A stretch of 45,870 nucleotides of DNA, taken from the IMG/VR virus record IMGVR_UViG_3300012931_000008. One strand, 5' to 3'. The notes under the pieces were generated by a model. It was not told the origin of the DNA, searched no databases, and was given only the letters and a program-made list of their open reading frames with translations. Source of the stretch: a virus. The position numbers were made by a program, and so were the translations under genes. Shown here piece after piece: positions 27,061 to 45,239 of the stretch (its first letter is position 1; each line of letters begins with the position of its first letter).

Positions 27061-27096
27061 CCACAAAGACCACGAAGGGCACGAGGGGCACGAAGC
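27061..27096 (+). repeat. B-type array, 4 x 9 nt (CACGAAGNN)
   Basis: ccacaaaga ccacgaagg gcacgaggg gcacgaagc. Confidence 0.85.
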
Positions 27097-27102
27097 CGGA
27101 TC

Positions 27103-27130
27103 GATGAACGATGAACGACGATCGATGAGC
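27103..27130 (+). repeat. H-type array, 4 x 7 nt (GATGAAC)
   Basis: gatgaac gatgaac gacgatc gatgagc. Confidence 0.7.
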
Positions 27131-27222
27131 TGTTTGGGCCTCCTTACCCGGCCATGGTCCGGGTCTTTTCATCGCCCGGATTGTAGCATAAGTGGAGCGG
27201 TGTTGTCAACAATAAATTTTCA

Positions 27223-27249
27223 CCACGAAGGGCAAGGGATTACGAATAA
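27223..27249 (+). repeat. Degenerate B-type array
   Basis: ccacgaagg gcaagggat tacgaataa. Confidence 0.5.
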
Positions 27250-27257
27250 CGGTTTAA

Positions 27258-27285
27258 CCACGAAGGGCACGAAGGGGCACGAAGA
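27258..27285 (+). repeat. B-type array, 3 units
   Basis: ccacgaagg gcacgaagg (g)gcacgaaga. Confidence 0.85.
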
Positions 27286-27290
27286 TGAAC

Positions 27291-27325
27291 AATCTTAAAT
27301 CACAAATCACAAATCTTAGATCCAA
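27291..27325 (+). repeat. F-type array, 5 x 7 nt
   Basis: aatctta aatcaca aatcaca aatctta gatccaa. It ends 18 nt before ATG 27344. Confidence 0.75.
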
Positions 27326-27343
27326 GTCGGGAGGTCAAGCCTG

Positions 27344-27673
27344 ATGGTTGCTTTTGCCGAACATAAACTCCCCGCGGCCCTCGACATCGCCATGACCTTA
27401 GAGGCGGATCTCTACAGGGTCTGCAGGATGGACGGTCTGGCAGCCGCCTGCATCGACAGATACTGGCCGGCGATGACGGCTGATCAAATCGCTGAGATCA
27501 TGATGAACACCTTTGCCTCTGAGTTGCTTCCGTCAATCGACAGTCCATCGGCGGAGTTTAATGCCATCGCCAAAGCGGCCTTCAGGACAGCCCCCAAACG
27601 CGCCATAGACGATACGCTCGCTCAAACGTGCCGAACCGCGAAAGGTACAAAGGAACACGAAGATGAGCAATAA
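27344..27673 (+). CDS. Hypothetical protein (first early gene)
   Basis: RBS gggagg lies 11 nt upstream. The C-terminus runs through a B array (AKGTKEHEDEQ). Confidence 0.55.
   Translation: MVAFAEHKLPAALDIAMTLEADLYRVCRMDGLAAACIDRYWPAMTADQIAEIMMNTFASELLPSIDSPSAEFNAIAKAAFRTAPKRAIDDTLAQTCRTAKGTKEHEDEQ
27637..27663 (+). repeat. Degenerate B-type array overlapping a start codon
   Basis: cgcgaaagg tacaaagga acacgaag-ATG. Confidence 0.5.
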
Positions 27674-28067
27674 TCCCTCGACAATCCGCGAACGCAGAAC
27701 GCAGCACGCACAACGCGGCACGCCCAAGAGCTGGCATCATCGCATGGCCCGCCTCATCGTCGGTGATTACCGGCCGGCCTGCATGGCTTCCGGATGCCCG
27801 AAAGCATACGGCGTCGCCCGCGCTGCCACGTTGGTCTGCGAATGGGACCAAGACCAGAACGGCCGAATGGTTAGCCGCCAGAGGCTGTACTGCAATGAGC
27901 ACGGTTCGCATTTCGCCGGGATTCATAGAATCTATTTGGCTGACCTGCCGCAGGCGAAGCTCTCGGAACTCGAGCAGGCCGACCGCAGCGGCTGGCGATA
28001 CAGCGATGATCTCACCACGAAGGGCACGAAGGAGCACGAAGAGGAGGCATTCAATGTCACCCGATAA
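27663..28067 (+). CDS. Hypothetical Cys/His-containing protein
   Basis: A 134-aa ORF. The N-terminus crosses a G array and the C-terminus crosses a B array (TTKGTKEHEEE). Confidence 0.5.
   Translation: MSNNPSTIRERRTQHAQRGTPKSWHHRMARLIVGDYRPACMASGCPKAYGVARAATLVCEWDQDQNGRMVSRQRLYCNEHGSHFAGIHRIYLADLPQAKLSELEQADRSGWRYSDDLTTKGTKEHEEEAFNVTR
27690..27724 (+). repeat. G-type array, 5 x 7 nt (NNACGCN)
   Basis: gaacgca gaacgca gcacgca caacgcg gcacgcc, 27 nt downstream of ATG 27663. Confidence 0.75.
28015..28041 (+). repeat. B-type array, 3 x 9 nt
   Basis: ccacgaagg gcacgaagg agcacgaag, followed by aggagg and ATG 28054. Confidence 0.9.
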
Positions 28068-28395
28068 ACCCGCCACAATTATTCTCGATGAGAGCCTGAT
28101 GCGAAAAGCCCCGCCGCTCATCGAGCTGGAGGCCCTGGCGGGCAAGGCGGTGGCGCTGCTGGCTTGCCGCAAGGAGGCGGTCTCGGCGACGATCTTCCGC
28201 AAGCCAGCGGGCAAGTCATATTGGGTCAGCTTGATGGATACCGGCCGAAAGATAATCGCCCTTATGGAGCTGAGGCCCCAGACCCCGGTGGTGGATTTCG
28301 AGATCGTCAATCGGGCGGTGAGTGACTTGGTTGTTTACCCACGAAGGGCACGAAGAGCACGAAGGAGCACGAATGAAGACATCTTTGATCGATAG
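28054..28395 (+). CDS. Hypothetical protein
   Basis: GAGGAGG lies 6 nt upstream of the ATG. The C-terminal tail reads a B array as PRRARRARRS. Confidence 0.55.
   Translation: MSPDKPATIILDESLMRKAPPLIELEALAGKAVALLACRKEAVSATIFRKPAGKSYWVSLMDTGRKIIALMELRPQTPVVDFEIVNRAVSDLVVYPRRARRARRSTNEDIFDR
28339..28374 (+). repeat. B-type array, 4 x 9 nt, overlapping a start codon
   Basis: ccacgaagg gcacgaaga gcacgaagg agcacga-ATG (28373). Confidence 0.9.
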
Positions 28396-28543
28396 AACTA
28401 AAATAGTGACCCTTCGAAACGGGAAGAAAAAACGAGTAAATCTCTTTGATTACAATATGGCCTATGCAGCGGATGGATACGTTCAACTTACAGATGATAG
28501 CTGGATCAAGGCGAGATTACTTAAGGCTTTAAATAGTCAATAG
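28373..28543 (+). CDS. Hypothetical small protein (56 aa)
   Basis: AAGGAG lies inside the B array, 5 nt upstream. The stop TAG lies inside a D array. Confidence 0.5.
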   Translation: MKTSLIDRTKIVTLRNGKKKRVNLFDYNMAYAADGYVQLTDDSWIKARLLKALNSQ

Positions 28544-28565
28544 TAAATAGTCAATCGTCAATGGC
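28531..28565 (+). repeat. D-type array, 5 x 7 nt (CAATAGT)
   Basis: aaatagt caatagt aaatagt caatcgt caatggc. TAG at 28534, 28541 and 28548 covers all three frames. Confidence 0.85.
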
Positions 28566-28700
28566 GGCTCCGCCGCTGGGTTCTTTGACAAGTTAAGACG
28601 GGTTTGTAGCTCAGTTGACAGGGCGCCTTCTTTTTGATAGGCTGCCGCGAACCTTGGATGACGAGGTTTGTGGCTAACCCTTGGAAAGGAGGTGGTGGCC

Positions 28701-29699
28701 ATGATTACAGCCACATCCCTGGTTCAGACTTTTTTGAGTGAGCATGTTCTGTTTTTAGCCGAAAGCACACTCGAGACGATCGAGCGGGCGTTCCGTTACT
28801 TCGTTCGCGCGGTGGGCAATCGGCGGATCGACCGGATCGAGCCGGCCGATGGCGAGGCGTACAAGGCCTGGCATTTGAGGACCAGCCGCAGCAAGACGAC
28901 GGCGAACATCCATTTGCGCAGCGTCAATTGGGTGCTCAATTGGGCCGTCGATCCGAAGAAGTTTCTGGCGGTCAACCCGCTGGCTCGGATCAAGCAGTTC
29001 CGCATCACCCGCAACCCGATTCGCATCTATGAGCCGCACCAGGTCGAGCGGATGATGCGCTTTGCTCCTAACGATCGATGGCGGGCGATTCTGCTGAGTG
29101 CCTATCAGACGGGTCTTCGTCGCGGTGAGCTGCTGAATCTGACGCGCGACAACGTTCGCGGCGGCCACATCTACGTCGAGCCCAAGCGCAGCACGCGGCA
29201 GACCTGGCCCTGGGAGCCGAAGGATAAAGAGATCCGTCAGGTCCCGATTACGCCCGAGCTCGATGCGATGCTTGCTGCCTTGCCCGGTTACTATGTTCTG
29301 CTGGATCCGCAGCAGGTCAGTCGGTTGCTCGGACTGCAGAGGCTCGGTTTGCTCAGGCATCGGCAGCGAAAGTGCCCGCAGGAGAATTTCCGCCGGACGT
29401 TTGTGGCGATCCAGCGGCGGGCCTTCGGCCGACAGATCGGCAACTTTCATCAGTTGCGAAAGACCTTCACGACAATGATGTGTACCGGTCTGCCTGACTA
29501 TCAGGTGATGCAATTGACCGGCCACAGCAGTCTCAAAACGATGACTTATTACCTGGCGAGCAGGCAGTCGGACGACCAGATCGTGCGCCAAATCGCCTCG
29601 CAGGGGCTAAAAAAAGGGTCTCCGGCGATACCAGAGACCCAGCCACACCCGCTGTGTCGCGGGCAAAGCGATTGGGCGATACAGGACTTGAACCTGTGA
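28701..29699 (+). CDS. int: Tyrosine recombinase / phage integrase
   Basis: AAGGAGG lies upstream of ATG 28701. Motifs LSAYQTGLRRGELLNL (Arg I), HQLRKTF (HxxR) and LTGHSSLKTMTYY (His-Tyr). The 3' tail runs into a tRNA fragment. Confidence 0.9.
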   Translation: MITATSLVQTFLSEHVLFLAESTLETIERAFRYFVRAVGNRRIDRIEPADGEAYKAWHLRTSRSKTTANIHLRSVNWVLNWAVDPKKFLAVNPLARIKQFRITRNPIRIYEPHQVERMMRFAPNDRWRAILLSAYQTGLRRGELLNLTRDNVRGGHIYVEPKRSTRQTWPWEPKDKEIRQVPITPELDAMLAALPGYYVLLDPQQVSRLLGLQRLGLLRHRQRKCPQENFRRTFVAIQRRAFGRQIGNFHQLRKTFTTMMCTGLPDYQVMQLTGHSSLKTMTYYLASRQSDDQIVRQIASQGLKKGSPAIPETQPHPLCRGQSDWAIQDLNL

Positions 29700-29724
29700 C
29701 TTCCTGCGTGTAAGGCAGAAGTCC
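29673..29724 (-). other. 3' half of a tRNA gene (anticodon arm to acceptor end; anticodon loop CTTACAC = UAC, Val-like); candidate attP core
   Basis: The minus strand reads GGACTTCTGCCTTACACGCAGGAAGTCACAGGTTCAAGTCCTGTATCGCCCA. T arm ACAGG-TTCAAGT-CCTGT. No matching 5' acceptor GGGCGAT lies upstream. Confidence 0.6.
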
Positions 29725-29900
29725 AAAAAAGACGGTAATGAGTCATCTAATTTAACCAGCTACAAACCTCCTTTCCAAGGTATGCCGGGGGGAACGTTCT
29801 TCTGTTTATGTTCACTTCTCATCCTCCCGGCTGGCATTATTTTCCATACCCTCCTCGTTTCGCAGCGCCGGCCTTGGGTTCCGGGCCGGCCTGCATTTAT

Positions 29901-29973
29901 CGCGGCGAAGAGCAACCGGACGCTCACCTGGCTCATAACCAGGAGGTTGAAGGTTCGAATCCTTCCGCCGCAA
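29901..29973 (+). tRNA. tRNA-Met(CAU), initiator-like (C1-A72 mismatch); no encoded CCA
   Basis: Hand-folded: CGCGGCG-AA-GAGC-AACCGGAC-GCTC-A-CCTGG-CTCATAA-CCAGG-AGGTT-GAAGG-TTCGAAT-CCTTC-CGCCGCA-A. It parallels E. coli tRNA-fMet (CGCGGGG...CUCAUAA...). Confidence 0.8.
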
Positions 29974-30100
29974 TAGGCGCAAGCGATCAGAGCTTGCAAT
30001 TACTGGCCCCAGCCGGCGGTGGGCGAAAACACCGGCCTTTGAAACCTTCATGACCCGGCGCCGCAGCGGGTGATCTGCGGCAGATTTAAGAAAATGTTCA

Positions 30101-30118
30101 CCACGAAGAACACGAAGG
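30101..30118 (+). repeat. B-type array, 2 units, followed by 2 F units
   Basis: ccacgaaga acacgaagg, then ag caatcga aaatcac. Confidence 0.7.
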
Positions 30119-30224: not shown

Positions 30225-30275
30225 GAACCGCAGGTGAACGCAGGTGAACGCAGATGAACGCAGATGAACGCAGAT
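30225..30275 (+). repeat. C-type array, 5 x 10 nt (GAACGCAGAT)
   Basis: gaaccgcaggt gaacgcaggt gaacgcagat gaacgcagat gaacgcagat. It ends 19 nt before ATG 30295. Confidence 0.9.
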
Positions 30276-30447: not shown

Positions 30448-30505
30448 CCACGAAGAGCTGGGTAGAGACGCCTTGACCGGCCTTGACTGAAAAGGAGAAT
30501 GAAGA

Positions 30506-30699: not shown

Positions 30700-30737
30700 A
30701 AATAGTCAATAGTCAATAGTCAATAGTCAATAGTAAA
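30700..30737 (+). repeat. D-type array, 5-6 x 7 nt
   Basis: aaatagt followed by caatagt x4. Five TAGs cover all three frames. It ends 7 nt before ATG 30745. Confidence 0.9.
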
Positions 30738-30744
30738 TCCAAAG

Positions 30745-32510: not shown

Positions 32511-32537
32511 CCACGAAGGGCACGAAGAACACGAAGG
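32511..32537 (+). repeat. B-type array, 3 x 9 nt
   Basis: ccacgaagg gcacgaaga acacgaagg, upstream of ATG 32550. Confidence 0.9.
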
Positions 32538-32549: not shown

Positions 32550-33410
32550 ATGGACGCGGCAAAACAGTCTGACAGGTCAGATAGGTCGGACGGGTCAGAC
32601 AAAAAATTAACCGGCACGCGCGAGTGGGCGGCGGCGACGACCAATATCCAGACCGGCTGCGAGCATGACTGCCGGTACTGCTATGCGCGGTACGATGCGG
32701 TAACGCGGCGTAAGCGATGCACCCGCGAGCAATGGCGAGTGCCTTTGATCCACGCCGATCGGCTCGATGCCCGCTACCGGTTGCTGCCAGGCCCCGTCAT
32801 GTTCCCCTCAACCCACGACATCACGGCAAACAACATCAGCGAGTGCCTGGTCGTGATTAAGAAGCTCTTAGAGGCGGGCAATGAGCTGCTCATCGTCAGT
32901 AAGCCCACCCTTGAATGTGTGCAGCTCCTCTGTGAGGTCCTGCGGCCCTGGCAGCGGCGGATCACATTTCGCTTCACCATCGGCTCGATGAGCGATGAGA
33001 TTCTCTCCTTCTGGGAGCCGGGGGCGCCGAGCTTCGAGTCGCGGTTCAAGAGCCTCACGTGCGCTTACTTCGCCGGCTACCGCACGAGCGTCTCCTGCGA
33101 GCCATACTTGGATGGCTTTCCGCAGCATGTTTATCACGCCTGCCGCGATTACTTGGTTGATAGTTTTTGGATCGGCAAGCTGCGCAATTGGGCCAGCCGG
33201 GTCGATCTATCGGGTGCCACGACCGAGGAGATCAAGCTCTACGTCGAACCACTCAAGGCCGCCCAACGTGACGGGTTTGTGCGGGGCCTGGTCCGAATAC
33301 TCGACGGCCGCAAATTCATTCGCTGGAAAGACAGCATCCGCGAAGTCATCGAAAAGGAACCGCAGATGAACGCAGATGAACGCAGATCCACGAAGGACAC
33401 AGAGCAATGA
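32550..33410 (+). CDS. Radical SAM enzyme (CX3CX2C), SplB/COG1533-like
   Basis: TGCEHDCRYCYARY. The ATG follows a B array. The N-terminus crosses an A array and the C-terminus crosses a C array. Confidence 0.65.
   Translation: MDAAKQSDRSDRSDGSDKKLTGTREWAAATTNIQTGCEHDCRYCYARYDAVTRRKRCTREQWRVPLIHADRLDARYRLLPGPVMFPSTHDITANNISECLVVIKKLLEAGNELLIVSKPTLECVQLLCEVLRPWQRRITFRFTIGSMSDEILSFWEPGAPSFESRFKSLTCAYFAGYRTSVSCEPYLDGFPQHVYHACRDYLVDSFWIGKLRNWASRVDLSGATTEEIKLYVEPLKAAQRDGFVRGLVRILDGRKFIRWKDSIREVIEKEPQMNADERRSTKDTEQ
32567..32602 (+). repeat. A-type array, 4 x 9 nt
   Basis: gtctgacag gtcagatag gtcggacgg gtcagacaa, read as SDRSDRSDGSDK, 17 nt after ATG 32550. Confidence 0.9.
33357..33405 (+). repeat. 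Composite array: C x3, then B x1, then E x1
   Basis: gaaccgcagat gaacgcagat gaacgcagat ccacgaagg acacagagc, then a-ATG 33407. Confidence 0.9.
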
Positions 33411-34941: not shown

Positions 34942-34968
34942 CCACGAAGGGCATAAATGAACACGAAG
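34942..34968 (+). repeat. B-type array with the start codon inside it
   Basis: TAA-ccacgaagg gcataaATG aacacgaag. Confidence 0.8.
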
Positions 34969-35199
34969 CAAGGCAAACACCTGACGCTGGAAGAACAGGC
35001 GATAAGGTTTATCGAGAAGTTGGACGCGATTTCAGGTCGGCCGCCGGATATGAAGCCCCTGATTATCGAAGGACAGACGCTGTGTCTGTTTCTCTATCTC
35101 GAAAAGCTATCCAACGGCCACATCAATTTCGATGGGACGCGAACCACGAAGGGCACGAAGAACACGAAGGATGAAAGATCATGGAGGATGGACCAATAA
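34957..35199 (+). CDS. Hypothetical 80-aa protein
   Basis: An ORF between two B arrays. Its tail reads TTKGTKNTKDE. Confidence 0.45.
   Translation: MNTKQGKHLTLEEQAIRFIEKLDAISGRPPDMKPLIIEGQTLCLFLYLEKLSNGHINFDGTRTTKGTKNTKDERSWRMDQ
35144..35170 (+). repeat. B-type array, 3 x 9 nt
   Basis: ccacgaagg gcacgaaga acacgaagg, 10 nt before ATG 35181. Confidence 0.9.
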
Positions 35200-35750
35200 T
35201 AAACTGTCAGCGATGCGGGGCGGCATGTAAGGTCGATCCAGTCCCAGGGTCCAAGGCAACCATGCTCAAACGGGGCAAGGACGCGAAAGGATTGTGCATC
35301 AATTGCGCCGCCCATGATTGGCTGCGAAATACCTATCCCGTGAATTTGTTGCTGGCCCGATCGGGTCCGAAGGGGCTTGCTTTGCCTCATATCCAGGAGC
35401 AATTCGCCGGCCTGATGAAGATGGCTAATTCGGACGCCCGGGCCGATGAGATTAACTGGCAGCGGATCATCGACAACTGGGAGCTGCCCTTCCCGAACAA
35501 GGTCAAAAGGACCGCCGAGAATCCGGCAGATCAGGAGGAGCTTGACCGAGAAGCCGAGCGGCACCGCCGACAGATCGAGGGCGAGCAAAAGGAATTGAAG
35601 GACCCGGCGAAACGCGAAAGAGAAAAGGAAGAAGCTGTTCGTAATTTTCTAAAGGCCGTCGGTTCGCCCAATGCGGATAAGCCGATGAGGATCAGGGAGG
35701 ATTTAGGCAACGTGGCTATCTTTATGGATAACGACGATGCACGAGAGTGA
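35181..35750 (+). CDS. Hypothetical protein with an N-terminal CxxC...CxxC zinc-ribbon-like motif
   Basis: INCQRCGAAC...GLCINCAAHDW. Confidence 0.5.
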   Translation: MEDGPIINCQRCGAACKVDPVPGSKATMLKRGKDAKGLCINCAAHDWLRNTYPVNLLLARSGPKGLALPHIQEQFAGLMKMANSDARADEINWQRIIDNWELPFPNKVKRTAENPADQEELDREAERHRRQIEGEQKELKDPAKREREKEEAVRNFLKAVGSPNADKPMRIREDLGNVAIFMDNDDARE

Positions 35751-36527: not shown

Positions 36528-38213
36528 ATGAAGAAGGAAAAATCGAAGGCCATGGCGAAAGGGCAACTCGTTTTTATCGAGCTCAAGAAAATAACCATCA
36601 CGAAGGGGTACAACCCGAGGCAAATCGACGTCAAGAGTCCTCATTTCCTGGACCTGGTGGAGAGCGTCAAGGCCCAGGGTGTGATTGTGCCCGTTCACGT
36701 GCGAAAAACCGGCGACCCGGCCGGCCCCTATGAGCTGCTGGCCGGCGAGCGGCGGTACCGGGCGGCAAGCCAAGCGGAATTGAAGCAGATCCCTGCCATC
36801 AATCACGGGCCGATCAGCGACGAGCAGGCCTTTGAGATCACCTTCGTCGAGAACTTCGCCCGCGAGGACCTCACGACGCTTGAGCAGGGCCGGGCCGTGG
36901 GGTTTCTGCTGGAGCGGTACAAGGGCGATTATACCGCCGTCGCCAGCAAATTAGGCAAGGCTGAATCATGGGTCAGGATGCGTCATGCCATCGAAACGAA
37001 CCTCAGCGAGGAATGGAAGAACGCAACCGCTGAGGGCTGCCGGCTGGAGCATTTCACGGCGGCGCACCTGGCCCTGGTGGCTCGCTTTCCTGCCAACGTG
37101 CAGGCAAACATTCTCAACGAGATTGGCTACCGAAAGGAGATGAGCGTTAAAGGTCTGGCTGCGATCGTGGCCGACATGCTGAGGCTAATCCGCAAGGCCC
37201 CCTTCGATACGGCCAAATGTGCCAAATGCACCAAGCGCAGCGATGCCCAGCCTCAGCTCTGGATGGACCGCGAGACGCAGAAAGTCGGCACGGGCGACCG
37301 CTGCCTCGATATCAAGTGCTGGGCGCGCAAGGAGCACGCGGCCCGCAAAGAGAAGCTCGCCGAGCTGCAGGCCAAATATCCGGGCCTGGTTAGCATCTGT
37401 ACGAAGGACTATCTCTGGGGCGAGGAAGCCAGGAAAGCCCAATCGAGCTATGGCAAATATCTGTCCAAACACGATTATGAGATGTGCAAAAAGAGCGACG
37501 CCAAAGCGGTACCGGCCGTCATCGTCAACGGCAAAGGCGCCGGCAATATCCAGTACATCAAGATCAAGCATCCGGATTCGCCGGCTGCGCAGAAGGCCAG
37601 CCATAGGACGCTCAAGGACCTCCGCAAGGATCTGACTGAACGTCGCTGGCTCGAGGCGATCCGCCGCATGTGCGAGCAGATCGGGAAAGTGCCGTTCGAC
37701 CAGATCATGGGCAAAGACGGCATGAGAGTTATCGTTTGGATGGCCGCGCTCTATGGGACGGGGGATGGAACCTTCGGTGCTGAACGCACATCGCTATTGA
37801 AGGAATTCGACAAAGGAGCTGGTGAGAGTGCGGCGGTGCCTCTGCGGATTATCTGGGAGTGCATCAGCCAGCAAATGGACTATATCGCCGACAGCATCGG
37901 CGCCGACCAGCGGGAAGGCGGCGTAATAGCCAAGCTCTTCAGCCTGGACTTGGACGCCGAATATAAGAAGGTCTGCCAGGATCCGGAATTCGCGGAGCCG
38001 ACTGAATGGAAGAATCTCAACGCCGATGGGACGCCGAAAAGCCAGAAGACAGGAGACGGAAAACAGAAGGCAGAAGAGAAGGGCAAGAAGGCAAAGAGCG
38101 AAAAGCAAACATGCCGGGAGTGCGGGTGCACGGAGGACAATGCCTGCATGACGGACGGCGAGCCGTGTCACTGGGTCGAGAAGGATTTATGCTCAGCGTG
38201 CGATCGTCAATAG
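36528..38213 (+). CDS. ParB/Srx N-terminal-domain protein with a C-terminal Cys-rich module
   Basis: GVIVPVHVRK...YELLAGERRYRAA is the ParB box. The C-terminus is CRECGCTEDNACMTDGEPCHWVEKDLCSAC. Confidence 0.75.
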   Translation: MKKEKSKAMAKGQLVFIELKKITITKGYNPRQIDVKSPHFLDLVESVKAQGVIVPVHVRKTGDPAGPYELLAGERRYRAASQAELKQIPAINHGPISDEQAFEITFVENFAREDLTTLEQGRAVGFLLERYKGDYTAVASKLGKAESWVRMRHAIETNLSEEWKNATAEGCRLEHFTAAHLALVARFPANVQANILNEIGYRKEMSVKGLAAIVADMLRLIRKAPFDTAKCAKCTKRSDAQPQLWMDRETQKVGTGDRCLDIKCWARKEHAARKEKLAELQAKYPGLVSICTKDYLWGEEARKAQSSYGKYLSKHDYEMCKKSDAKAVPAVIVNGKGAGNIQYIKIKHPDSPAAQKASHRTLKDLRKDLTERRWLEAIRRMCEQIGKVPFDQIMGKDGMRVIVWMAALYGTGDGTFGAERTSLLKEFDKGAGESAAVPLRIIWECISQQMDYIADSIGADQREGGVIAKLFSLDLDAEYKKVCQDPEFAEPTEWKNLNADGTPKSQKTGDGKQKAEEKGKKAKSEKQTCRECGCTEDNACMTDGEPCHWVEKDLCSACDRQ

Positions 38214-38235
38214 TCAATAGCGAATAGTCAATCTT
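38201..38235 (+). repeat. D-type array, 5 x 7 nt
   Basis: cgatcgt caatagt caatagc gaatagt caatctt. TAG at 38211, 38218 and 38225 covers all three frames. Confidence 0.85.
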
Positions 38236-40022: not shown

Positions 40023-40231
40023 GTGACAGCCGAAGCACGCCACGCGAAACGCCGAACACTGAACGCAGTACGCTTTTGGGCATTGAGCTGCCGTTCGACT
40101 GGTGTCTGGTGAAAGGTGAAATGCTCCGCCGCCTACAGACGGACCTCCACGAAGCACAGCAGACCGCAGCGCTGCGGCTGCGGATCTGCGCGAATCTTCA
40201 AAGGCAACTTTTGCGGAAGGATGAACGATGA
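40019..40231 (+). CDS. Hypothetical 70-aa protein
   Basis: ATGA-coupled at both ends. Confidence 0.45.
   Translation: MSDSRSTPRETPNTERSTLLGIELPFDWCLVKGEMLRRLQTDLHEAQQTAALRLRICANLQRQLLRKDER
40035..40076 (+). repeat. G-type array, about 6 x 7 nt (ACGC phased every 7 nt)
   Basis: gcacgcc acgcgaa acgccga acactga acgcagt acgcttt, 16 nt after ATG 40019. Confidence 0.65.
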
Positions 40232-40947
40232 ACACTGAGGAGCATGGAACGACAGTAGCTTATTTGAGACGACGGATTGCTGAGGCTCAGAGGACGGTGA
40301 AGGTCTTTACCGAAAGCCTCGTGCTGCTCGAGGGTGTACCGGTCGTATCGTTGCCGGAAGAAATAATCCCTCCCGGTCCGGTAGCGTCGCTGGAGCAAAG
40401 GGCTGCCGATGCCGCCAGGGACGCCGAGAAATTGCGCAACCAAAGCAAGGCCGCTCGGCGGGCCGGCGGCAAGGCTGGCAAGAAACTGGAAAGGAACGCG
40501 CGCCGAGGGCCGAAAAAATCTTTTTCGACTTATATGGGCGTCTATAACGGCGGCCGCACCGCGGATGGCCGGCAGCGCTATTTGTCTTCCTTTTACAAAG
40601 ATGGCAAGAACAAGTATCTGGGCACATTCCATATCGAGGAAGAGGCCGCGGCGGCCGTTGCTCAAGCCCGGGGCGACAAAGCTGAAGCCCGGCGCCTTTA
40701 TCAGATTGCCCGCCAGAAGCAAATCGATCTCGCCGAATCGCAACGTCTTGACTATATGGGCCGCCGCAAGCAAGCAGATGCCCCCGAGCAGAAAGAGAAT
40801 AATCCCGACCGGAGCGCATCGCGCCGGCCGGTGGCCCAGGCGAAGGTCGTCTATCGCTGTAAGCGATGCAACCTGACGTTCAAGACCAAGCCGAAGCTGT
40901 GCGAGCAATGTCACAGCGGGGAGTTCATCGAGGAGCCCCAGGAGTGA
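40228..40947 (+). CDS. AP2-domain DNA-binding protein with a C-terminal zinc ribbon
   Basis: STYMGVYNGGRTADGRQRYLSSFYKDGKNKYLGTFHIEEEAAAAVAQA matches the AP2/ERF pattern. The zinc ribbon is CKRCN...CEQCH. Confidence 0.7.
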   Translation: MNTEEHGTTVAYLRRRIAEAQRTVKVFTESLVLLEGVPVVSLPEEIIPPGPVASLEQRAADAARDAEKLRNQSKAARRAGGKAGKKLERNARRGPKKSFSTYMGVYNGGRTADGRQRYLSSFYKDGKNKYLGTFHIEEEAAAAVAQARGDKAEARRLYQIARQKQIDLAESQRLDYMGRRKQADAPEQKENNPDRSASRRPVAQAKVVYRCKRCNLTFKTKPKLCEQCHSGEFIEEPQE

Positions 40948-40948
40948 A

Positions 40949-40975
40949 CCACGAAGGGCACGAAGAGCAACAAGG
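40949..40975 (+). repeat. B-type array, 3 x 9 nt
   Basis: TGA-a-ccacgaagg gcacgaaga gcaacaagg. Confidence 0.85.
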
Positions 40976-41359: not shown

Positions 41360-41386
41360 CCACGAAGGACACGAAGGGACACGAAA
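41360..41386 (+). repeat. B-type array, 3 x 9 nt
   Basis: ccacgaagg acacgaagg gacacgaaa, 11 nt before ATG 41398. Confidence 0.9.
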
Positions 41387-41397: not shown

Positions 41398-41757
41398 ATG
41401 GATGAACGAAAAATGATCCAAATGACCGCCGCGATGGAAGGGCAGGCTACGGTCATCAAGAACTTAGGCCGCAAGCATAAGGTCTCAGAGATGGAACTCA
41501 TCTGCCTGTGCAACTTCGCCAACTTAGGCCTCCTGGAGGTTTTCCGTGAGTTAGAAGGGCAGACTGGATATAAGGCCAGCCTGGAGATCGACCAGCTCAG
41601 AGAATCCATTCGACGGACCTTTGCGACCAAACAAAATCCCGATGGCCTGGCCCGGCTCGCCCAGAGCTGCACGGCCATCCTCTGCGAGCATCATCTGTCA
41701 CAATGGATTATCGGTTTAGACGATCAGCCGGAGGAAACCGCAGATGAACGCCGATGA
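41398..41757 (+). CDS. Hypothetical protein
   Basis: A 119-aa ORF. Its stop lies inside a C array. Confidence 0.5.
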   Translation: MDERKMIQMTAAMEGQATVIKNLGRKHKVSEMELICLCNFANLGLLEVFRELEGQTGYKASLEIDQLRESIRRTFATKQNPDGLARLAQSCTAILCEHHLSQWIIGLDDQPEETADERR

Positions 41758-41765
41758 ACGCTGAT
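41735..41765 (+). repeat. C-type array, 3 x 10 nt
   Basis: aaaccgcagat gaacgccgat gaacgctgat, followed by aatctgtga aatctgtgg. Confidence 0.8.
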
Positions 41766-41778
41766 TGCTGAGTAATCT

Positions 41779-42813
41779 GTGAAATCTGTGGCCAAGAAAA
41801 CGCAAAACGCAAAACGCAAAACGCACAACGCCGCGAAGCTCAGCGAAGCGGCAGCGCAGCGTCTGGGCTTCGCCTGCAAGGACATCGCCCAGGCGGACGC
41901 GGCGGCGGGGATCCGGCCGAACCTGGCCAAGTATCTCGGCCGGCATCCGCGATTGCGGGTCGCCTTCGAGCGCGGTCGATTTCTGGCGAACCTCAAGGCC
42001 CTGGCGGGCGTGGTGGCGACGGTCTCGGAGGCAGCGCACAAGCTGGGCCTTGTTTCCGGAGAGGCCCTGCGCGAAATCTTAGACAACGACGCCGAGGCGG
42101 CGGATATTTGGAGCCAGACCAGGCTCGATACGATCATCCAGGCCCGACAGGCCCTGCTGACGGCGGCCAAGGAGGGCAACCAGACGGCCATTCGGGCAGT
42201 CGAAAATTATCTGCGAGAGGAAAAGCAGGCCACCGGCCCCTCCATGGACCAGATGCACCTTTCGCAAAAGGAGATCTGCGATCTATTCTCCGTCAGCCGG
42301 GTGACGTTAGGCGAATGGCAAAGTAAACAAGGCCTGCCCCGCAACGTCGATAAGACGTACAACCTGGCCGATATGATCCGCTGGTTCGGCGAGTTCATCA
42401 GCCGCAAACAGGGCGGCCGCATCCTGCCGGCCGACAAGCTCCGCGACTTGAAGGCCGAAGAGAAGGCCATCGACTTAGCCGAGCGCCGCGGGCGGCTCCG
42501 TGATATCGAGGAGGTCATCAGCGGCCTGGCCGTCCGCTGGCAGCGGATCGTCGGGGCATTCCGCTACAAGCGAAGGGAGCTCGCCATGATGGTCCACGGC
42601 CAGACCGTCGAGCGGATCGAGGACGCCCTGGGCCGCTTCTTCGAGGACATCCAGCGAAGCTGGTGTGAGAAGCTGCCGGAGTTCGTGGATGTGCCGCCTG
42701 AGGCGGAGGGCAAGCTCAATGAGTTTCTCGAGCTGATGGTCAAAAAGATAGCCACAGAGGACACAGAGGACACAGAGAAAGGAAGCACACATGAATATAA
42801 AAAGAATATGTGA
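41779..42813 (+). CDS. terS: Terminase small subunit, Nu1-like, with an N-terminal extension
   Basis: LSQKEICDLFSVSRVTLGEWQSKQGLP..YNLADMIRWF and KAEEKAIDLAERRGRL parallel lambda Nu1. It lies upstream of the large terminase. Confidence 0.6.
   Translation: MKSVAKKTQNAKRKTHNAAKLSEAAAQRLGFACKDIAQADAAAGIRPNLAKYLGRHPRLRVAFERGRFLANLKALAGVVATVSEAAHKLGLVSGEALREILDNDAEAADIWSQTRLDTIIQARQALLTAAKEGNQTAIRAVENYLREEKQATGPSMDQMHLSQKEICDLFSVSRVTLGEWQSKQGLPRNVDKTYNLADMIRWFGEFISRKQGGRILPADKLRDLKAEEKAIDLAERRGRLRDIEEVISGLAVRWQRIVGAFRYKRRELAMMVHGQTVERIEDALGRFFEDIQRSWCEKLPEFVDVPPEAEGKLNEFLELMVKKIATEDTEDTEKGSTHEYKKNM
41797..41833 (+). repeat. G-type array, 5 x 7 nt
   Basis: aaaacgc repeated (aaacgca x4, then caacgcc), 18 nt after GTG 41779. 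Confidence 0.8.
42752..42778 (+). repeat. E-type array, 3 x 9 nt
   Basis: ccacagagg acacagagg acacagaga, followed by aaggaag and ATG 42791. Confidence 0.9.
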
Positions 42814-43240
42814 AGATTGCGTATTTTACGAAAAAAACGGGGCGACGAGCATAGCGATTTGTAGACGGTATGCGCCGCGGGCCCAGACTCGTTTGGATTT
42901 TGATGGTGTTAATCCAGATAACCCTCATTGGTCTGGGGAAGTGACTTGGCCAGCCGTTGAAGGGGATAGGGATTGGTGTGGCGAATTTGAATCAAGACAA
43001 GATAATAGTTGCGAATTGCCACTAGCGCTGTTGAGCAGCCATATACGGAGATTTCTACGCATAAGGGAAAAGAAGGGTAAGCCCATACGGACCGTTGAGC
43101 AGCTTCTATCATTAACCACAGTCGAAATATTGAGAGAGAATACGATAGGAGTGCAGACTCTTTATCAAATTGAACAACTGCAGAAAAAATTGCGTGGGAA
43201 ATTTGGTTCCAAAAGAGAACCCCTCAAGGCGGATATATAA
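42791..43240 (+). CDS. Hypothetical protein with a C-terminal helix-hairpin-helix resembling the RNA polymerase alpha CTD
   Basis: LSSHIRRFLRIREKKGKPIRTVEQLLSLTTVEILRENTIGVQTLYQIEQL. The gene is AT-richer and sits between terS and terL. Confidence 0.4.
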   Translation: MNIKRICEDCVFYEKNGATSIAICRRYAPRAQTRLDFDGVNPDNPHWSGEVTWPAVEGDRDWCGEFESRQDNSCELPLALLSSHIRRFLRIREKKGKPIRTVEQLLSLTTVEILRENTIGVQTLYQIEQLQKKLRGKFGSKREPLKADI

Positions 43241-43259
43241 GGATCCCTTGCGATAAAAG

Positions 43260-45212
43260 ATGATCCAAACAATCATAAATCATAAATCAGAAATCCGACG
43301 GCTTCACGTTCTGCCCCTGCAGGATGAGGAGCTGGATATCCTTCGTCCGCGCCAGCGGCCGCCGCTGATCGAGTGGCTGGAGAATAACTATATCCTGGAA
43401 GGGGGCACGGCGGCGATCGAGGGTCCGTGGAGCCGGGAATACACGCCCTATTTCGTGGAGCCCGCCGAGTGGCTCAGCGATTCCACGACGAGGGAGCTCT
43501 GGATACGGGCGTGCAGCCAGGGCGGCAAGACCACCTTTGGCACCGGGTTCGTCGGTTATATCGCGGCGGTGTCTCCCGGTCCGACGCTGCTCATCATGCC
43601 GACCAAACCCGATGTCCAGAACCGAGTCGAGGCCCGGATCCGCCCGATGTTCCGGGCGAATGAGGACCTGCTTCGCCACGTCCGGGGCCGCGAGCGCAAT
43701 ATCTACATCGGCAAGCAGACCGTCATGGACCACATGAATCTCTACATCGGCTGGCCTACGACGGCGCAGGCCCTGGCCGATAAGCCGGTCTGCTACATCG
43801 AGGCCGATGAGGTCGGTAAATTCCCCGCCTTCGTTGGCCCGGAAGCTGACCCCATCTCGCTGATGCGCAAGCGCCAGCGGTGGTTCAAGGGCCGCTCAAA
43901 GCTCCTGGCGATGAGCACTCCCGTCACGATGGATGATCTGGAGGATCAGAATTGGAAACGGGGCGATTGCTGCGAGCTGTGGGTGCCGTGCGCGCACTGC
44001 GGCCAGTGGCATCAGTTAGGCTGGTTTCGAGGCGAGAATGAGTACAACGTCGTCATTGAAAAGACCACTAAAGGTGATTGGTACAGCGAAGGGACCTACG
44101 CCCGGGGCCTGCACTGCTGGTACGAGTGCCCGCATTGTCACGCCCATTGGACCGAGGACGATCGCTGGAAGGCGGTGCAGGCGGGCAAGTGGGTGCCCGG
44201 CAGCTTGGCACTCGATGCAAGAGGTAACCTGGTCGGTCAACTTCTTCCCATGACGTATCGTTCGATTCGGATCCACGCCCTCATGCTGCACCCGATGGTC
44301 GAGACGGTTTCCGGATTAGTGGCCGAATTTGTCACGGCGGTCAAGGCGCGGGCCGCCGGCAATATCCAGCCCTACAAGGATTTCTGGAATAGCCAGCTCG
44401 CCCGCCCCTGGCAGGAAAAAAAGGCGATCACCGAGATCGAGGTCCTCAATCGCCACGTTGGCTCCTATCCGAAGGGCAAGGTCCCGCCCGGCGTCCAGAT
44501 GGCGACCGCCGGCATCGATGTACAATTGGATCATTGCTATATCGCCGTCTTAGGCTGGGGATATTTGGGCCAGTGGTGGAGCCTCTTCGAGGAGCGGATT
44601 GAGACAGGGCCGACGGACCGCTTAGAGAATCTTAAAAAACTGGAACCGTATCTTGCCATGCGCTTCGAGCTTTTGGAGGACCCCTCGCTTGTCATGCGGA
44701 TAGCGCTCGCCGCCATCGATCGCCAATATAACAGCGAGACGGTCGATGCCTTCTGCTGCCACTATGCCGGGATGCTGCCGATCATCCCCGTCATGGGCGA
44801 TGACCGGTTGAATAAGCAGCCCTGGCGGGTCGGGGCCGCCGCCGGCGGGCGATTGAAGCGGTACGATCTGAATGTCACGATGTACAAGGATGCCCTCTAT
44901 CGCGGCTATTTTGAGGCCATCGCCGCCGGGCCGGGCTACGGTCATCTTCACCGCGAAACCGAGTATTGGGTCTTGGAGCAGTTGACCAGTGAGACCAAAG
45001 AGATCGAGCGGCACGGCGAGCGGATCGTCTGGATCGGCTGGAAGCAGAAACCCGGCCGGGCGAACCATCTGTGGGATTGCAGCGTCTATGCCCGGGCGGC
45101 GGCGGAGATCCGGGGACTCTGGACCTTGGCCGACCCATCGGCGCCCAAACAGGAAGCGCCGAAGCCGCCCGGCCGACCGGTGGGTCGAAGACCGATCAGG
45201 ACGAAATACTAA
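43260..45212 (+). CDS. terL: Terminase large subunit, gpA family
   Basis: 650 aa. P-loop ACSQGGKTT. The size and the N-terminal ATPase plus C-terminal nuclease layout fit lambda gpA-type terminases. Confidence 0.85.
   Translation: MIQTIINHKSEIRRLHVLPLQDEELDILRPRQRPPLIEWLENNYILEGGTAAIEGPWSREYTPYFVEPAEWLSDSTTRELWIRACSQGGKTTFGTGFVGYIAAVSPGPTLLIMPTKPDVQNRVEARIRPMFRANEDLLRHVRGRERNIYIGKQTVMDHMNLYIGWPTTAQALADKPVCYIEADEVGKFPAFVGPEADPISLMRKRQRWFKGRSKLLAMSTPVTMDDLEDQNWKRGDCCELWVPCAHCGQWHQLGWFRGENEYNVVIEKTTKGDWYSEGTYARGLHCWYECPHCHAHWTEDDRWKAVQAGKWVPGSLALDARGNLVGQLLPMTYRSIRIHALMLHPMVETVSGLVAEFVTAVKARAAGNIQPYKDFWNSQLARPWQEKKAITEIEVLNRHVGSYPKGKVPPGVQMATAGIDVQLDHCYIAVLGWGYLGQWWSLFEERIETGPTDRLENLKKLEPYLAMRFELLEDPSLVMRIALAAIDRQYNSETVDAFCCHYAGMLPIIPVMGDDRLNKQPWRVGAAAGGRLKRYDLNVTMYKDALYRGYFEAIAAGPGYGHLHRETEYWVLEQLTSETKEIERHGERIVWIGWKQKPGRANHLWDCSVYARAAAEIRGLWTLADPSAPKQEAPKPPGRPVGRRPIRTKY
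43271..43298 (+). repeat. F-type array, 4 x 7 nt, inside the terL N-terminus
   Basis: aatcata aatcata aatcaga aatccga. TAA occurs in both non-coding frames. Confidence 0.75.
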
Positions 45213-45239
45213 CCACGAAGAACACGAAGAGACATGAAG
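45213..45239 (+). repeat. B-type array, 3 x 9 nt
   Basis: TAA-ccacgaaga acacgaaga gacatgaag. Confidence 0.85.

Follow-up and report, generated by a model that had tools for sequence, protein, structure and literature searches.

The B- and E-type arrays found in the window (the whole stretch of 45,870 nt analysed here) represent a repeat element, about 30-40 nt long, that is not phage-specific, the same unit recurring in over 118 IMG/VR stretches and over 120 genome stretches that span many phyla. Indeed, among the four hypotheses raised in the preliminary description, a host-genome-wide junction signal is the best supported, given that an identical element is dispersed in bacterial chromosomes. 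Within the phage, the arrays are most likely ready-made ribosome-binding spacers. Sequence comparisons suggest, tentatively, that a widespread repeat element may have been co-opted there as an intercistronic spacer carrying a ribosome-binding site, a scenario that we regard as quite possible, if short of probable.

The arrays were confirmed as real and non-random when enrichment was checked against shuffled sequence. CACGAAG occurs 39 times in the whole window, versus 6.05 +/- 2.74 in shuffles (maximum 17); the main set comprises 36 copies on the + strand, all within 27,071-45,229, and the only others are at 7303 (+), 3562 (-) and 31978 (-). B-type tandem pairs (CACGAAG-N2-3-CACGAAG) number 15, with none in 100 shuffles, and all 15 are on the + strand, as had been described. 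Four E-type pairs (CACAGAG-N2-3-CACAGAG), also absent from shuffles, were found at 26180 and 42753. Every locus previously listed exists, that at 27637 proving to be one perfect unit after degenerate AAAGG units. The reported threefold repetition holds at eight loci, whereas six carry two units and three carry one; degenerate additional units are present at some loci. The element consists of an A-rich stretch, followed by TTT(C/A)AC and, in most cases, three cores of 7 nt set at a spacing of 9, occasionally 10, nt; the core is CACGAAG, with the variants CACAGAG, CACGGAG and CACAAAG. The 2-3-nt spacers are free in sequence, but purine-rich. Only solo copies are present in the phage, all in sense orientation on the coding strand, with neither a promoter match nor a stem-loop in the window arrays. 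The element lacks stop codons in all frames, so that upstream reading frames run through the arrays. Heptamer arrays of AAATCAC, AATAGTC and GAACGCA also occur in the window, adjoining B arrays.

The phage appears to be temperate and lambda-like, with a genome of 45.7 kb in which the arrays would fill most non-overlapping junctions of the right arm, among lysogeny, replication and packaging genes. Its divergent, repressor-like control region uses different, 18-nt repeats of its own. All arrays described below are on the + strand. An E array (CACAGAG x3, lead-in TTTAGC) at 26180-26204 lies directly 3' of the hairpin and T run terminator (26132-26173) of the 1154-aa tail-fibre gene, with no + strand gene downstream. 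The leader after the rightward promoter carries CACAAAG-CACGAAG-CACGAGG-CACGAAG (27062-27095), with a T run on its 5' side and an ATG at 27104. One perfect and one degenerate unit with lead-in TTTTCAC are found at 27224-27239, and three B units with lead-in TTAAC (27259-27284) abut ATG 27285 of a 19-codon ORF, whose stop overlaps ATG 27344. The single unit at 27656-27662 forms the 7-nt spacer between AAAGGAA and ATG 27663. Three B units at 28016-28041, within the 3' end of ORF 27663-28067, are followed by GAGGAGG and ATG 28054; three more (plus CACGAAT) at 28340-28364, within the 3' end of ORF 28054-28395, give AAGGAG to ATG 28373. Two B units at 30102-30117, about 130 nt past a tRNA-Met gene, have no nearby start codon, and this array and that at 26180 are without a gene to serve in the window. 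A single unit (30449-30455) stands immediately 3' of a TAA stop.

Further along, three B units with lead-in TGAAC (32512-32536) give GAAGGAG to ATG 32550 of a radical-SAM-like gene, in a 31-nt module identical to that at 35141. One B and one E unit at 33389-33404, within the 3' end of ORF 32550-33410, have CGCAGATGAA x2.7 on their 5' side and ATG 33407 of a HerA-like ATPase gene 2 nt on. The single unit at 34943-34949, immediately 3' of a TAA stop, places GAAGGG 4-6 nt ahead of ATG 34957; a second unit (34962-34968) is inside the ORF that starts there, and three B units at 35145-35169, within the 3' end of the same ORF (34957-35199), give GAAGGA to ATG 35181. Two CACGAAG units and CACGGAG (36043-36068), within the 3' end of ORF 35737-36114, end 3 nt ahead of ATG 36072. 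Two B units at 40950-40965 lie immediately 3' of the TGA of an HNH-endonuclease gene (40228-40947), 25 nt before the next ATG (40991), and two CACGAAG units plus CACGAAA with lead-in TTTTCAC (41361-41386) precede candidate starts at 41398 and 41413. The E array CACAGAGGA x3 (42753-42777), within the 3' end of a TerS-domain ORF (41779-42813), is followed by AAAGGAAG and ATG 42791. Finally, two CACGAAG units plus CATGAAG (45214-45239), immediately 3' of the TerL stop, are followed by the mini-ORF ATGAAGTAA, the heptads AAATCGA/AAATCAT (45240-45263), AAGGAG and ATG 45274.

The arrays had been assigned to the early half only, a label that is wrong because four of them (40949, 41360, 42752 and 45213) sit in the HNH/TerS-like/TerL packaging module. 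The description of most arrays as beginning 0-2 nt past the upstream stop codon was borne out at about six loci (27258, 30448, 32511, 34942, 40949 and 45213), but at about six other junctions (28015, 28339, 33388, 35144, 36042 and 42752) the upstream ORF covers the array with its 3' end and has a stop that overlaps the next ATG or comes after it, an arrangement counted at about 6-7 junctions. Ten loci end 0-13 nt before an ATG, within the 0-15 nt originally given, while three end 25-34 nt before it.

A role as a ribosome standby or re-initiation platform, as previously hypothesized, is supported for this phage: the best anti-SD duplex (-4 to -18) overlaps the array for 10 of the 13 array-preceded genes, and ORFs read through to the next start. 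Mean duplex energy was -7.6 kcal/mol for array-preceded genes versus -6.1 for other genes, and mean pairing of single units was -5.4 versus -1.5 for random 9-mers, all with the 16S tail of the host assumed to be CACCUCCUUUCU. In genes lacking arrays, the site is an ordinary AAAGGAG located about 6-8 nt ahead of the ATG. The predicted unpaired probability was 0.55 for arrays, 0.40 for random windows and 0.51 for other ribosome-binding regions.

On a polycistronic mRNA, each copy would constitute a U-free, weakly structured, purine-rich spacer, whose units GAAGGA, GAAGGG and AAGGAG would base-pair with the 16S rRNA 3' end and serve as the Shine-Dalgarno site of the next gene, with further SD-like sites upstream, one per 9-nt step. 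With all three frames free of stop codons, the element would often be read through by ribosomes arriving from upstream, which would stop at or just beyond the next start codon, and this may keep both genes translationally coupled. Since it appears at and disappears from junctions as a module, the element would be best seen as a portable spacer bearing a ribosome-binding site, probably drawn from the repeat repertoire of the host lineage, and not as a phage-specific regulatory site. SD pairing accounts for GAAGG, but leaves the invariant CAC, the constant number of three units and the lead-in unexplained; together with the cross-phyla identity of the core, these features look more like the site of a specific binder.

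Close relatives gain or lose arrays at the same junctions, and more distant relatives are without them. Relative L040, with tail genes 74-80% identical to those of the window phage, has TAAC-(CACGAAG)x3-(AAATCAT)x3-ATG at a junction that is an ATGA overlap in the window; this composite matches that at 45210-45273 of the window. The ATG behind one of the L040 composites is without an SD in the 15 nt next to it, and another ATG is abutted by an E array in antisense orientation. Relative L007 retains the array after TerL, there ahead of an extra gene of about 165 aa, at whose position the window has the mini-ORF ATGAAGTAA. At the three junctions comparable with L007 and L040, 3/3 differences are at arrays. 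Absence from relatives with conserved genes, which the preliminary description had counted against its readings, was found among relatives of the ATPase gene (48-79% identity), indicating that arrays track lineage and not gene module.

The element fills intergenic regions of many uncultivated phages, including unrelated ones with a GC content of 47-70%, and its core is common to at least 8 phyla. Isolate matches included Desulfobacter vibrioformis and four Herpetosiphon species, one of them H. aurantiacus (Herpetosiphon aurantiacus DSM 785, complete genome); the element is also carried on megabase-sized contigs from long-read MAGs of Acidobacteriota. No true array was found in cultured phages or plasmids, and neither a matching Rfam family nor a published description of the element was found. 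Viral and cellular arrays alike repeat every 9 nt, with conserved cores and variable spacers, and most often have exactly three units (150 of 260 in viruses and 122 of 205 in cellular genomes). The arrays are a defined element. A slippage microsatellite is argued against by these features, the conserved 5' boundary (the first unit is almost always CCACGAAG) and the zero array indels among three assemblies of the phage.

In chromosomes, the element is an interspersed intergenic repeat, mostly arranged as a pair of copies that face inward, 11-200 nt from each other, in spacers with a gene reading into them, beside housekeeping genes. Inward-facing pairs, with the conserved lead-in on the outer side, outnumber back-to-back pairs 106 to 7, and only 1 of 31 pairs lies in a divergent promoter region, versus 16% of background spacers (P ~0.035, binomial). 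The arms keep their own purine-rich spacers, which are not complementary to the other arm: spacers are identical in 15% (11% by permutation), yet their lengths are in register in 87% (versus 64%). The 137 flanking ORFs are ordinary housekeeping genes (178 Pfam families), with no gene family enriched; transposases, RAYTs and integrases are all missing from the 25 commonest families. No autonomous partner was found between distant pairs, and the examples inspected showed no target-site duplication. Solo arrays share one orientation within contigs more often than expected (89 of 105, versus 74). With gene calls outside the window made by ORF/GC3 heuristics, solo arrays between co-directional genes of other phage contigs were 11 sense versus 18 antisense (antisense at junctions of L051 and L086, for instance), and no start-codon peak was found just 3' of sense arrays (468 arrays), which argues against a ribosome platform as the role of the whole repeat family.

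The paired form recalls a selfish, MITE- or REPIN-like miniature mobile element with the arrays as its arms, which would survive only at harmless insertion sites, namely transcribed spacers and gene junctions; the phage copies would be passengers and their SD use incidental. The inward-facing excess, with the lead-in outside as in terminal inverted repeats, the lineage-level sub-families with shared loops, the presence or absence of arrays at orthologous junctions of close relatives, the scarcity of pairs in divergent promoter regions and the lack of a fixed family-wide relation to start codons agree with this origin. We nevertheless consider it rather unlikely, given the negative searches for target-site duplications, mobility genes and an autonomous partner described above, the single orientation of fourteen solo arrays in the window, which the decay of hairpin elements does not predict, and the identity of the core across phyla, whereas REPINs diverge with their RAYT. 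The conserved core would suit a cross-phyla, sequence-specific RNA- or DNA-binding factor that acts on intercistronic regions and might bind a single array as a trimer and an inverted pair as a hexamer; the phage sites would use or titrate this factor, their SD-like content being secondary. Near-invariant 7-nt cores among 2-3-nt spacers, loops and lead-ins that drift by lineage, the three-unit mode, the number of phyla sharing one core, the arms in register despite their own spacers and the co-orientation of solo arrays point to such a factor. However, no candidate protein has emerged, the neighbours of arrays show no enriched gene family, spacings of 9 or 10 nt are both tolerated, both orientations relative to genes occur, and the absence of the element from cultured phages and plasmids implies that model organisms would have to lack the factor, whose existence we consider unlikely.

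The other readings are less probable still. Microhomology linkers, short sequences common to the phages of one host pool that would allow cassette swapping like PeSL, gain weak support from the gene insertion or deletion behind the TerL array (L007) with the mini-ORF in its place, the two junction insertions in L040, and the composite of B array and AAATCAT heptads at different junctions of related phages. Against them, only three junctions are comparable, no gene family recurs behind arrays in different contexts as a cassette would, chromosomal copies between housekeeping genes are left unexplained, and the benefit of shuffling is a weak selective force for invariant cores; we find this explanation improbable. 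A polar DNA signal, such as a Chi-like site halting the host exonuclease or a sequence that guides or blocks a translocase or polymerase, would account for the common direction of solo copies on a phage genome. Co-orientation within contigs is strong and holds for arrays sense or antisense to genes, and the motifs are purine-rich 7-8-mers, resembling in composition the guide sequences of FtsK and SpoIIIE. Yet Chi and KOPS also lie outside intergenic DNA and form no triplets with a lead-in, the inward-facing excess is given no reason, and genome and gene co-orientation are inseparable in contigs of co-directional genes, all of which renders such a signal very improbable. Finally, stoperator-like operators of a phage-encoded early regulator, repressor or antiterminator would fit the single strand, the junctions outside the structural arm and the presence of a repressor-like divergent control region. 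That region, however, is built on a different repeat, arrays occur in the packaging module and in the tail operon of a relative, and the element lies between housekeeping genes in chromosomes of many phyla and in unrelated phages of widely differing GC content, so that this previously proposed role is extremely improbable and close to refuted.

The portable spacer with a ribosome-binding site that we favour can be set against several known systems. The stoperators of cluster A mycobacteriophages are, like the arrays, asymmetric, with many intergenic sites in one orientation to transcription, but they are phage-specific, single 13-bp sites bound by the phage's own repressor, whereas the element is found in the chromosomes of many phyla. 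The short tandemly repeated repetitive (STRR) heptamers of heterocystous cyanobacteria share with the element short units in few tandem copies, dispersed intergenic positions and several unit families per genome; their units have other sequences and were described for one cyanobacterial group. To our knowledge, STRRs have not been reported with a fixed three-unit architecture and lead-in, nor in phages. The term STRR is used in PMC2670836 and PMC4046671.

REP/BIME sequences and REPINs (PMC3733652, PMC3116915) are, like the element, short, high-copy and extragenic, often arranged as inverted doublets 20-100 bp apart that could form a hairpin, located between co-directional or convergent genes, and also found as singletons. 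Nevertheless, a REP consists of a single palindrome of 20-40 bp, bears a GTAG or CGTC tag and diverges with its RAYT per lineage, whereas an arm of the element is a tandem direct repeat without internal palindrome or tag, its core is the same across phyla and no RAYT was seen nearby. PeSL cassettes of T4-type phages (PMC2839356, PMC4122927) likewise place conserved short motifs at gene boundaries in the plastic part of the genome, coinciding with insertions, deletions and replacements between close relatives, but they combine a sigma-70 promoter with a terminator stem-loop and are phage-specific, in contrast to arrays without a promoter match. The SAS/ESAS of cluster K mycobacteriophages, which are contrasted with stoperators in the same work (PMC3203893), are also short asymmetric repeats in one orientation, limited to the right, non-structural half of the genome in a temperate siphovirus and located a few nt ahead of start codons, with an SD core, conserved positions unable to pair with 16S rRNA and, sometimes, the upstream stop codon within the repeat. 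Their role in translation initiation is a proposal, as yet unproven (PMC3203893). SAS is a single 13-bp unit, GGGATAGGAGCCC, specific to a single phage cluster and not found in the genome of the host (PMC3203893), whereas the arrays are tandem triplets of an element shared by the chromosomes of many phyla and by unrelated phages.

CACGAAG, the heptamer at the core of the tandem B arrays, is present in 39 copies in the window, compared with 6.05 +/- 2.74 in dinucleotide-preserving shuffles; 36 of them map to the + strand, from 27,071 to 45,229. Fifteen pairs of cores at 2-3 nt spacing were found, all on the + strand, whereas 100 shuffles gave none; likewise, four such pairs of the CACAGAG core of the E arrays were detected at 26180 and 42753, with none in shuffles. 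The enrichment and strand bias for which the preliminary description had proposed a comparison with shuffled sequence were thus borne out, and all 17 loci that it listed are present. Its reading of the arrays as three units at each junction held for eight of these loci, but six carry two units and three carry one, and degenerate extra units (CACGAGG, CACGGAG, CACGAAA, CATGAAG) were found at several arrays. The unit period is 9 nt (n=19) or 10 nt (n=3), the spacers are variable and purine-rich (GG, GA, AA, AG, GGG, GAG), and TTCAC, TGAAC or TAAC leads into the first unit. Since the arrays lack T, all of their sense frames are free of stop codons, as is their complement. All are solo in form (14 solo arrays, no inverted pairs). 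Their supposed restriction to the early half did not hold, as the arrays at 40949, 41360, 42752 and 45213 sit in the packaging module; the right arm with its spacer-separated genes is the accurate description of where they occur. B and E arrays are absent from the portal-to-tail-fibre operon, in which gene junctions overlap.

A 123-nt direct repeat at the window ends (1-123 and 45748-45870) and a match to a 45,813-bp metagenome contig with 3-4 SNPs and zero indels indicate that the window represents an entire phage genome (~45.7 kb), circularly closed or terminally redundant. The phage is lambda-like, with a gpA-type TerL (43260-45212), a lambda-family portal, an S49 protease, and gpZ-like and tail-T-like genes. 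It also encodes an integrase (28668-29699) adjoined by a tRNA-Met(CAT) (29900-29974), a HerA-like ATPase, a ParB-like protein, an HNH endonuclease (40228-40947) and a TerS-domain protein (41779-42813). No close relative was found among cultured phages by megablast of 20 kb, nor were relatives found by way of the ParB-like protein. Read from its sequence, the tRNA bears initiator hallmarks, with A11:U24 and a C1xA72 mismatch, but only two of the three G:C pairs of the anticodon stem; it may be an initiator-like tRNA encoded by the phage. A tail-fibre-like ORF (1154 aa) contains large tandem repeats at 24700-25700, with periods of 66, 87, 111 and 132 nt and a Ser/Gln-rich reading on the + strand; two long ORFs are also open on the - strand (24386-25768 and 24462-25736). 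The divergent control region (26839-27210) carries the 18-nt repeat TTTACGTA..AAATGTAT twice at 26857-26894, a rightward promoter-like TTGACG-17-GATATT at 26893, and a strong leftward TTGACA-18-TACAAT site (27209-27180) aimed at a 152-aa minus-strand ORF, in a layout like that of lambda P_RE. The rightward leader contains two terminator-like hairpins, one ending near 27058 and the other at 27146-27164.

In array-free genes of the window, a standard AAAGGAG lies 6-8 nt ahead of the ATG, indicating that the host initiates translation by Shine-Dalgarno (SD) pairing. Taking CACCUCCUUUCU as the assumed host 16S tail, the strongest duplex between -4 and -18 overlaps the array in 10 of the 13 array-preceded genes, and the mean duplex energy is -7.6 kcal/mol in array-preceded genes vs -6.1 in 33 other genes. 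One unit together with its spacer gives -5.4 on average, compared with -1.5 for random 9-mers. Arrays have a predicted unpaired probability of 0.55, higher than the 0.40 of random windows and the 0.51 of other ribosome-binding regions. At ten loci the array lies 0-13 nt from the ATG, and at approximately seven junctions the upstream ORF crosses the stop-free array to end on or past the next ATG, a predicted layout with the geometry of translational coupling. For this phage, these features are consistent with the ribosome platforms hypothesized in the preliminary description. The best-supported reading is that a widespread repeat element would have been co-opted here as a portable intercistronic spacer bearing an SD sequence; the identity of the element is nearly certain, and the function proposed for it is moderately supported.

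The junctions of two close relatives differ from those of the window. In L007 (85% identity from TerL to portal), the array is kept 3' of the TerL stop and is followed by an extra gene of ~165 aa and then by a different heptad array. The window has no gene at this site, only a mini-ORF, ATGAAGTAA (45235-45243), between the B array and AAATCAT heptads; the L007 gene begins ATGAAAGTG at the position of this mini-ORF, which may be a remnant left by the deletion of a gene. In L040 (74-80% identity over the tail genes), TAAC-(CACGAAG)x3-(AAATCAT)x3-AACC-ATG, the same composite as at window 45210-45273, occupies the position of an ATGA overlap in the window (13922). L040 also has, where the window reads TGAtATG, a ~130-nt insert containing antisense CTCTGTG units and repeats resembling CGCAGATGAA. 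These differences indicate that arrays have been gained or lost as modules at orthologous junctions, a relative's structural operon included. An array was missing at the ATPase junction of 99 phage loci with a HerA-like ATPase (48-79% aa identity, GC 29-57%), which are too distant to count as close relatives and were used for this negative result only. Among them, the L242/L272 and L277 lineage abounds in arrays of other types (CACAGAG and CACGGATTAA). The lack of an array at the same junction in ATPase relatives suggests that the arrays follow lineage, presumably host lineage, rather than gene module.

The element extends far beyond this phage. IMG/VR and the species-representative genomes (596 Gb) were searched with the 17-mer CCACGAAGRRCACGAAG; for both collections, the abundance and taxonomic range given here are minimum values, and not unbiased ones. 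At least 118 IMG/VR stretches carry the element, many with 4-20 cores and with GC contents of 47-70%, as do at least 120 stretches of the species-representative genomes. By our own arithmetic, ~280 chance matches to the 17-mer are expected in 596 Gb, so that noise may underlie lone two-unit matches within GC-rich coding DNA; it does not explain most genome matches, in which the full architecture is present. On the 5' side, the matched arrays are A-rich at -14 to -8 and continue with T (42%), T (59%), T (59%), C (47%) or A (34%), A (84%) and C (93%), and a third unit is found in ~60% of them, although the search did not demand it. Isolate carriers include Herpetosiphon aurantiacus DSM 785 (complete genome), three other Herpetosiphon species and Desulfobacter vibrioformis DSM 8776, and long-read carriers include megabase contigs of Acidobacteriota MAGs. 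Further MAG carriers belong to Planctomycetota, Verrucomicrobiota, other Chloroflexota, Desulfobacterota, Binatia, Nitrospirota and Lentisphaerota, as well as to some Gamma- and Betaproteobacteria and some Bacteroidales. Lineage sub-families can be recognized by a TTGATC lead-in in Herpetosiphon, a third spacer TTN in Acidobacteriota, and TTCGGA...TCCGAA loops in Binatia and "delta" MAGs. Of the four hypotheses in the preliminary description, a host-genome-wide junction signal is the best supported, the same element being found in chromosomes of many phyla. By contrast, 50,697 cultured-phage records and 72,556 plasmids yielded only partial chance matches, mostly within annotated genes, and no true array. 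In Rfam 15, only tRNA reached the gathering score for the window and ten array-rich loci. Full-text search with six versions of the sequence, in a coverage that leaves out most subscription journals, retrieved no paper on the element, and concept searches likewise gave no description in the literature covered.

Three is the modal unit number in both viral (150 of 260) and cellular arrays (122 of 205), which argues for a defined element and not an open-ended microsatellite. Each arm is a direct tandem repeat of a non-palindromic 7-mer whose outer end is A-rich and then reads TTT[C/A]AC; GTAG and CGTC do not appear in the position matrix. The usual cellular form, also found in some phages, consists of two arrays placed face-to-face, 11-200 nt apart (106 pairs, compared with 7 back-to-back). 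The arms of a pair have their cores in common and in register, with equal spacer lengths at 87% of positions vs 64% under permutation, but the spacer sequences are not complementary (15% identical vs 11% expected) and transition mismatches show no bias to one strand (20 hairpins vs 17.9 expected). Thus, each arm appears to be an array in its own right and not the mere complement of its partner. Selection for an RNA helix was accordingly discarded, and no RNA-level covariation is claimed. Genes flanking the pairs are co-directional in 24 cases, convergent in 6 and divergent in 1, with 2 pairs inside ORFs, against a background of 262 co-directional, 106 convergent and 68 divergent spacers; the near-absence of pairs between divergent genes indicates that they occupy spacers entered by a reading gene. 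The 137 flanking ORFs are ordinary metabolic or housekeeping genes spread over 178 Pfam families.

Several known signals were considered and set aside. An intrinsic terminator does not fit as a general role, with TTT beside the stem in only ~30% of arms and a TTTT run in 10-13%, and neither does a promoter, given the 7 back-to-back vs 106 face-to-face pairs and sigma-70 scan matches (26-31 kb) that fall off the arrays. By reading of the sequence, spacing does not match the sigma-54 or ECF consensus, GGA is not conserved in the spacers as CsrA sites would have it, and integron attC, Hfq ARN repeats, G-quadruplex, DnaA boxes, parS and MuA end sites fit poorly.

Solo arrays are also co-oriented within other phage contigs (89 of 105 on the majority strand vs 74 expected). 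With gene calls outside the window made by our own ORF/GC3 heuristics, they are sense to genes in the compared stretches L074, L093 and L058, and antisense in L051 and L086, still exactly at junctions; between co-directional genes, 11 are sense and 18 antisense. That the arrays are a polar DNA signal, which would explain the shared orientation of solo copies along a phage genome, is very improbable. A refined distance test revealed no start-codon pile-up after the sense end in 468 arrays; with naive ORFs, start-codon distance is uninformative, as random positions score equally high. Adjacency to an upstream stop was rejected as a trait of the family, the commonest lead-ins, TTCAC and CTCAC, holding no stop; an ORF of at least 60 codons ends within 14 nt of only 15% of arrays, compared with 5% of random positions. 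Nor does SD pairing account for the invariance of CAC, the constant number of three units, the conservation of the lead-in or a core that is identical across phyla. The same breadth makes it hardly credible that the arrays are operators of a phage regulator. Recombination linkers, proposed in the preliminary description as promoters of module shuffling, gain from the coincidence of all three junction differences with L007 and L040, a small sample, with arrays, but no recurrent cassette genes lie behind the arrays beyond syntenic relatives and spurious ORFs, and this account is distinctly unlikely.

A selfish element of MITE/REPIN type, with passenger copies in the phage, is possible, though well short of probable. 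MITEs have terminal inverted repeats, target-site duplications and a related autonomous IS element, and REPINs have a cognate single-copy RAYT transposase in the genome. The paired architecture resembles terminal inverted repeats; no target-site duplication is visible in the examples read, no consistent small ORF or transposase lies between distant array pairs, and transposase, integrase and Y1 transposase are not among the commonest families of the flanking ORFs. It is doubtful, if conceivable, that the arrays are sites for a conserved factor not yet described. In its specific form, a rather improbable one, the triple CACGAAG would be the recognition site of a cross-phylum factor, the inverted pairs its chromosomal form, and phages would plug in via co-oriented solo sites. 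Such a factor, perhaps a trimeric or hexameric RNA- or DNA-binding protein, would act on intra-operon spacers in Acidobacteriota, Chloroflexota, Planctomycetota, Verrucomicrobiota, Desulfobacterota and others; if so, a widespread layer of operon-level control would have been missed since it is absent from model organisms. The SD-bearing spacer, the selfish element and the conserved factor are not mutually exclusive.

Other short tandem-repeat families share the window junctions (GTCAGACAG, AATAGTC/AAATCAC, CGCAGATGAA and GAACGCA); arrays with a period of 6-11 number 40 in all, a density of 8.7 per 10 kb. A second 9-nt family, GTCAGACAG/GTCGGACAG, is repeated two to four times directly 5' of ribosome-binding sites in both genome arms (3622-3656, 20731-20764, 22137-22170, 36468-36503, 45485-45521), and L007 differs from the window by one 9-nt unit of it at 45488-45496. 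At least 118 IMG/VR stretches match the pattern GTCRGACAR x2, in which pairs ~100 nt apart recur. Heptamer (AAATCAC, AATAGTC, AAATCAT) and decamer (CGCAGATGAA) arrays, located at 27297-27315, 28532-28562, 30701-30738, 38206-38232, 43271-43295 and 45240-45263 and also at 30229-30275, 33361-33387 and 41739-41765, often immediately adjoin B arrays on either side. The heptad type is not constant at one junction between close relatives (AAATCAT in the window, CAATAGT in L007). Intergenic DNA assembled from repeated modules was found in L073 (IMGVR_UViG_3300038701_003367), in the order B array, GC-rich hairpin, CACAGAGGG/CGCAGAGGG array and second hairpin, and in L058, in the order B array, hairpin CCCCCGGTG..CACCGGGGG and AGCCGAC heptads. 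A Bacteroidales MAG (JAISWE010000169.1; L195, 5243-5833) carries seven tandem hairpin copies of ~85 nt apiece, with CACGAAG x3 in the 5' arm and CTTTGTG x3 in the 3' arm; all mismatches are G.U on one strand, with a predicted folding energy of -39 kcal/mol on that strand vs -20 on the opposite one.

REP, REPIN, MITE and STRR repeats are held to be lineage-specific, and SAS (start-associated sequences), PeSL cassettes and stoperators phage-specific. The array element contradicts both expectations, since isolates and MAGs from at least eight phyla, and many of their phages, share one 7-nt core arranged in a constant three-unit layout. This breadth, together with the absence of a prior description in the literature covered, points to either an overlooked conserved cellular partner or an unusually promiscuous miniature mobile element, and cultivable carriers such as H. 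aurantiacus DSM 785 and D. vibrioformis permit direct testing. For phage biology, the window offers a concrete case of putative ribosome-binding spacers built from the repeat repertoire of a host lineage, and the element may serve as a new sequence handle tying uncultivated phages to host lineages. For annotation, stop-free arrays account for the recurrent spurious peptides HEGHEG, TKDTKD and FVSFVV and for read-through C-terminal tails.

Among known systems, the nearest precedent for short tandem units dispersed in intergenic DNA is the STRR family of cyanobacteria. Stoperators are bound by the phage's own repressor and are phage-specific, whereas the array element is chromosomal and cross-phylum. 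The cellular pairs resemble REP/BIME elements in being extragenic, dispersed, located in spacers with a gene reading in, and doublet in form. In a REPIN, the hairpin unit that replicates consists of two inverted copies with a short spacer between them; cellular genomes and some phages contain 106 inward-facing pairs with spacer lengths in register, and the window has 14 solo arrays and no pair. REP/BIME sequences carry a GTAG or CGTC tetranucleotide at one end (PMC3733652); unlike these and REPINs, the array pairs have neither this tag nor the defining imperfect palindrome of 20-40 bp, and do not diverge by lineage. PeSL, the regulatory cassettes of T4-type phages, join a sigma-70-like promoter to a terminator stem-loop (PMC2839356, PMC4122927); the arrays share with them the coincidence with insertion/deletion boundaries between close relatives (3/3, a small sample), but those of the window lack a promoter match, an inverted partner and terminator content. 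Each SAS of the cluster K mycobacteriophages is a single 13-mer that the host genome lacks (PMC3203893), and SAS are cluster-specific, in contrast to an element found in at least 118 IMG/VR and at least 120 genome stretches of many phyla. Nor are the arrays conserved ahead of the same gene families in related phages, as ATPase relatives at 48-79% identity lack the array at that junction; one junction is kept in L007. Thus, the array element belongs with the interspersed intergenic repeats, yet departs from each known family in at least one defining trait. In the window phage, with one orientation, confinement to the right arm, a distance of 3-7 bp from starts and an SD core with extra conserved bases, the arrays appear to work most like SAS.
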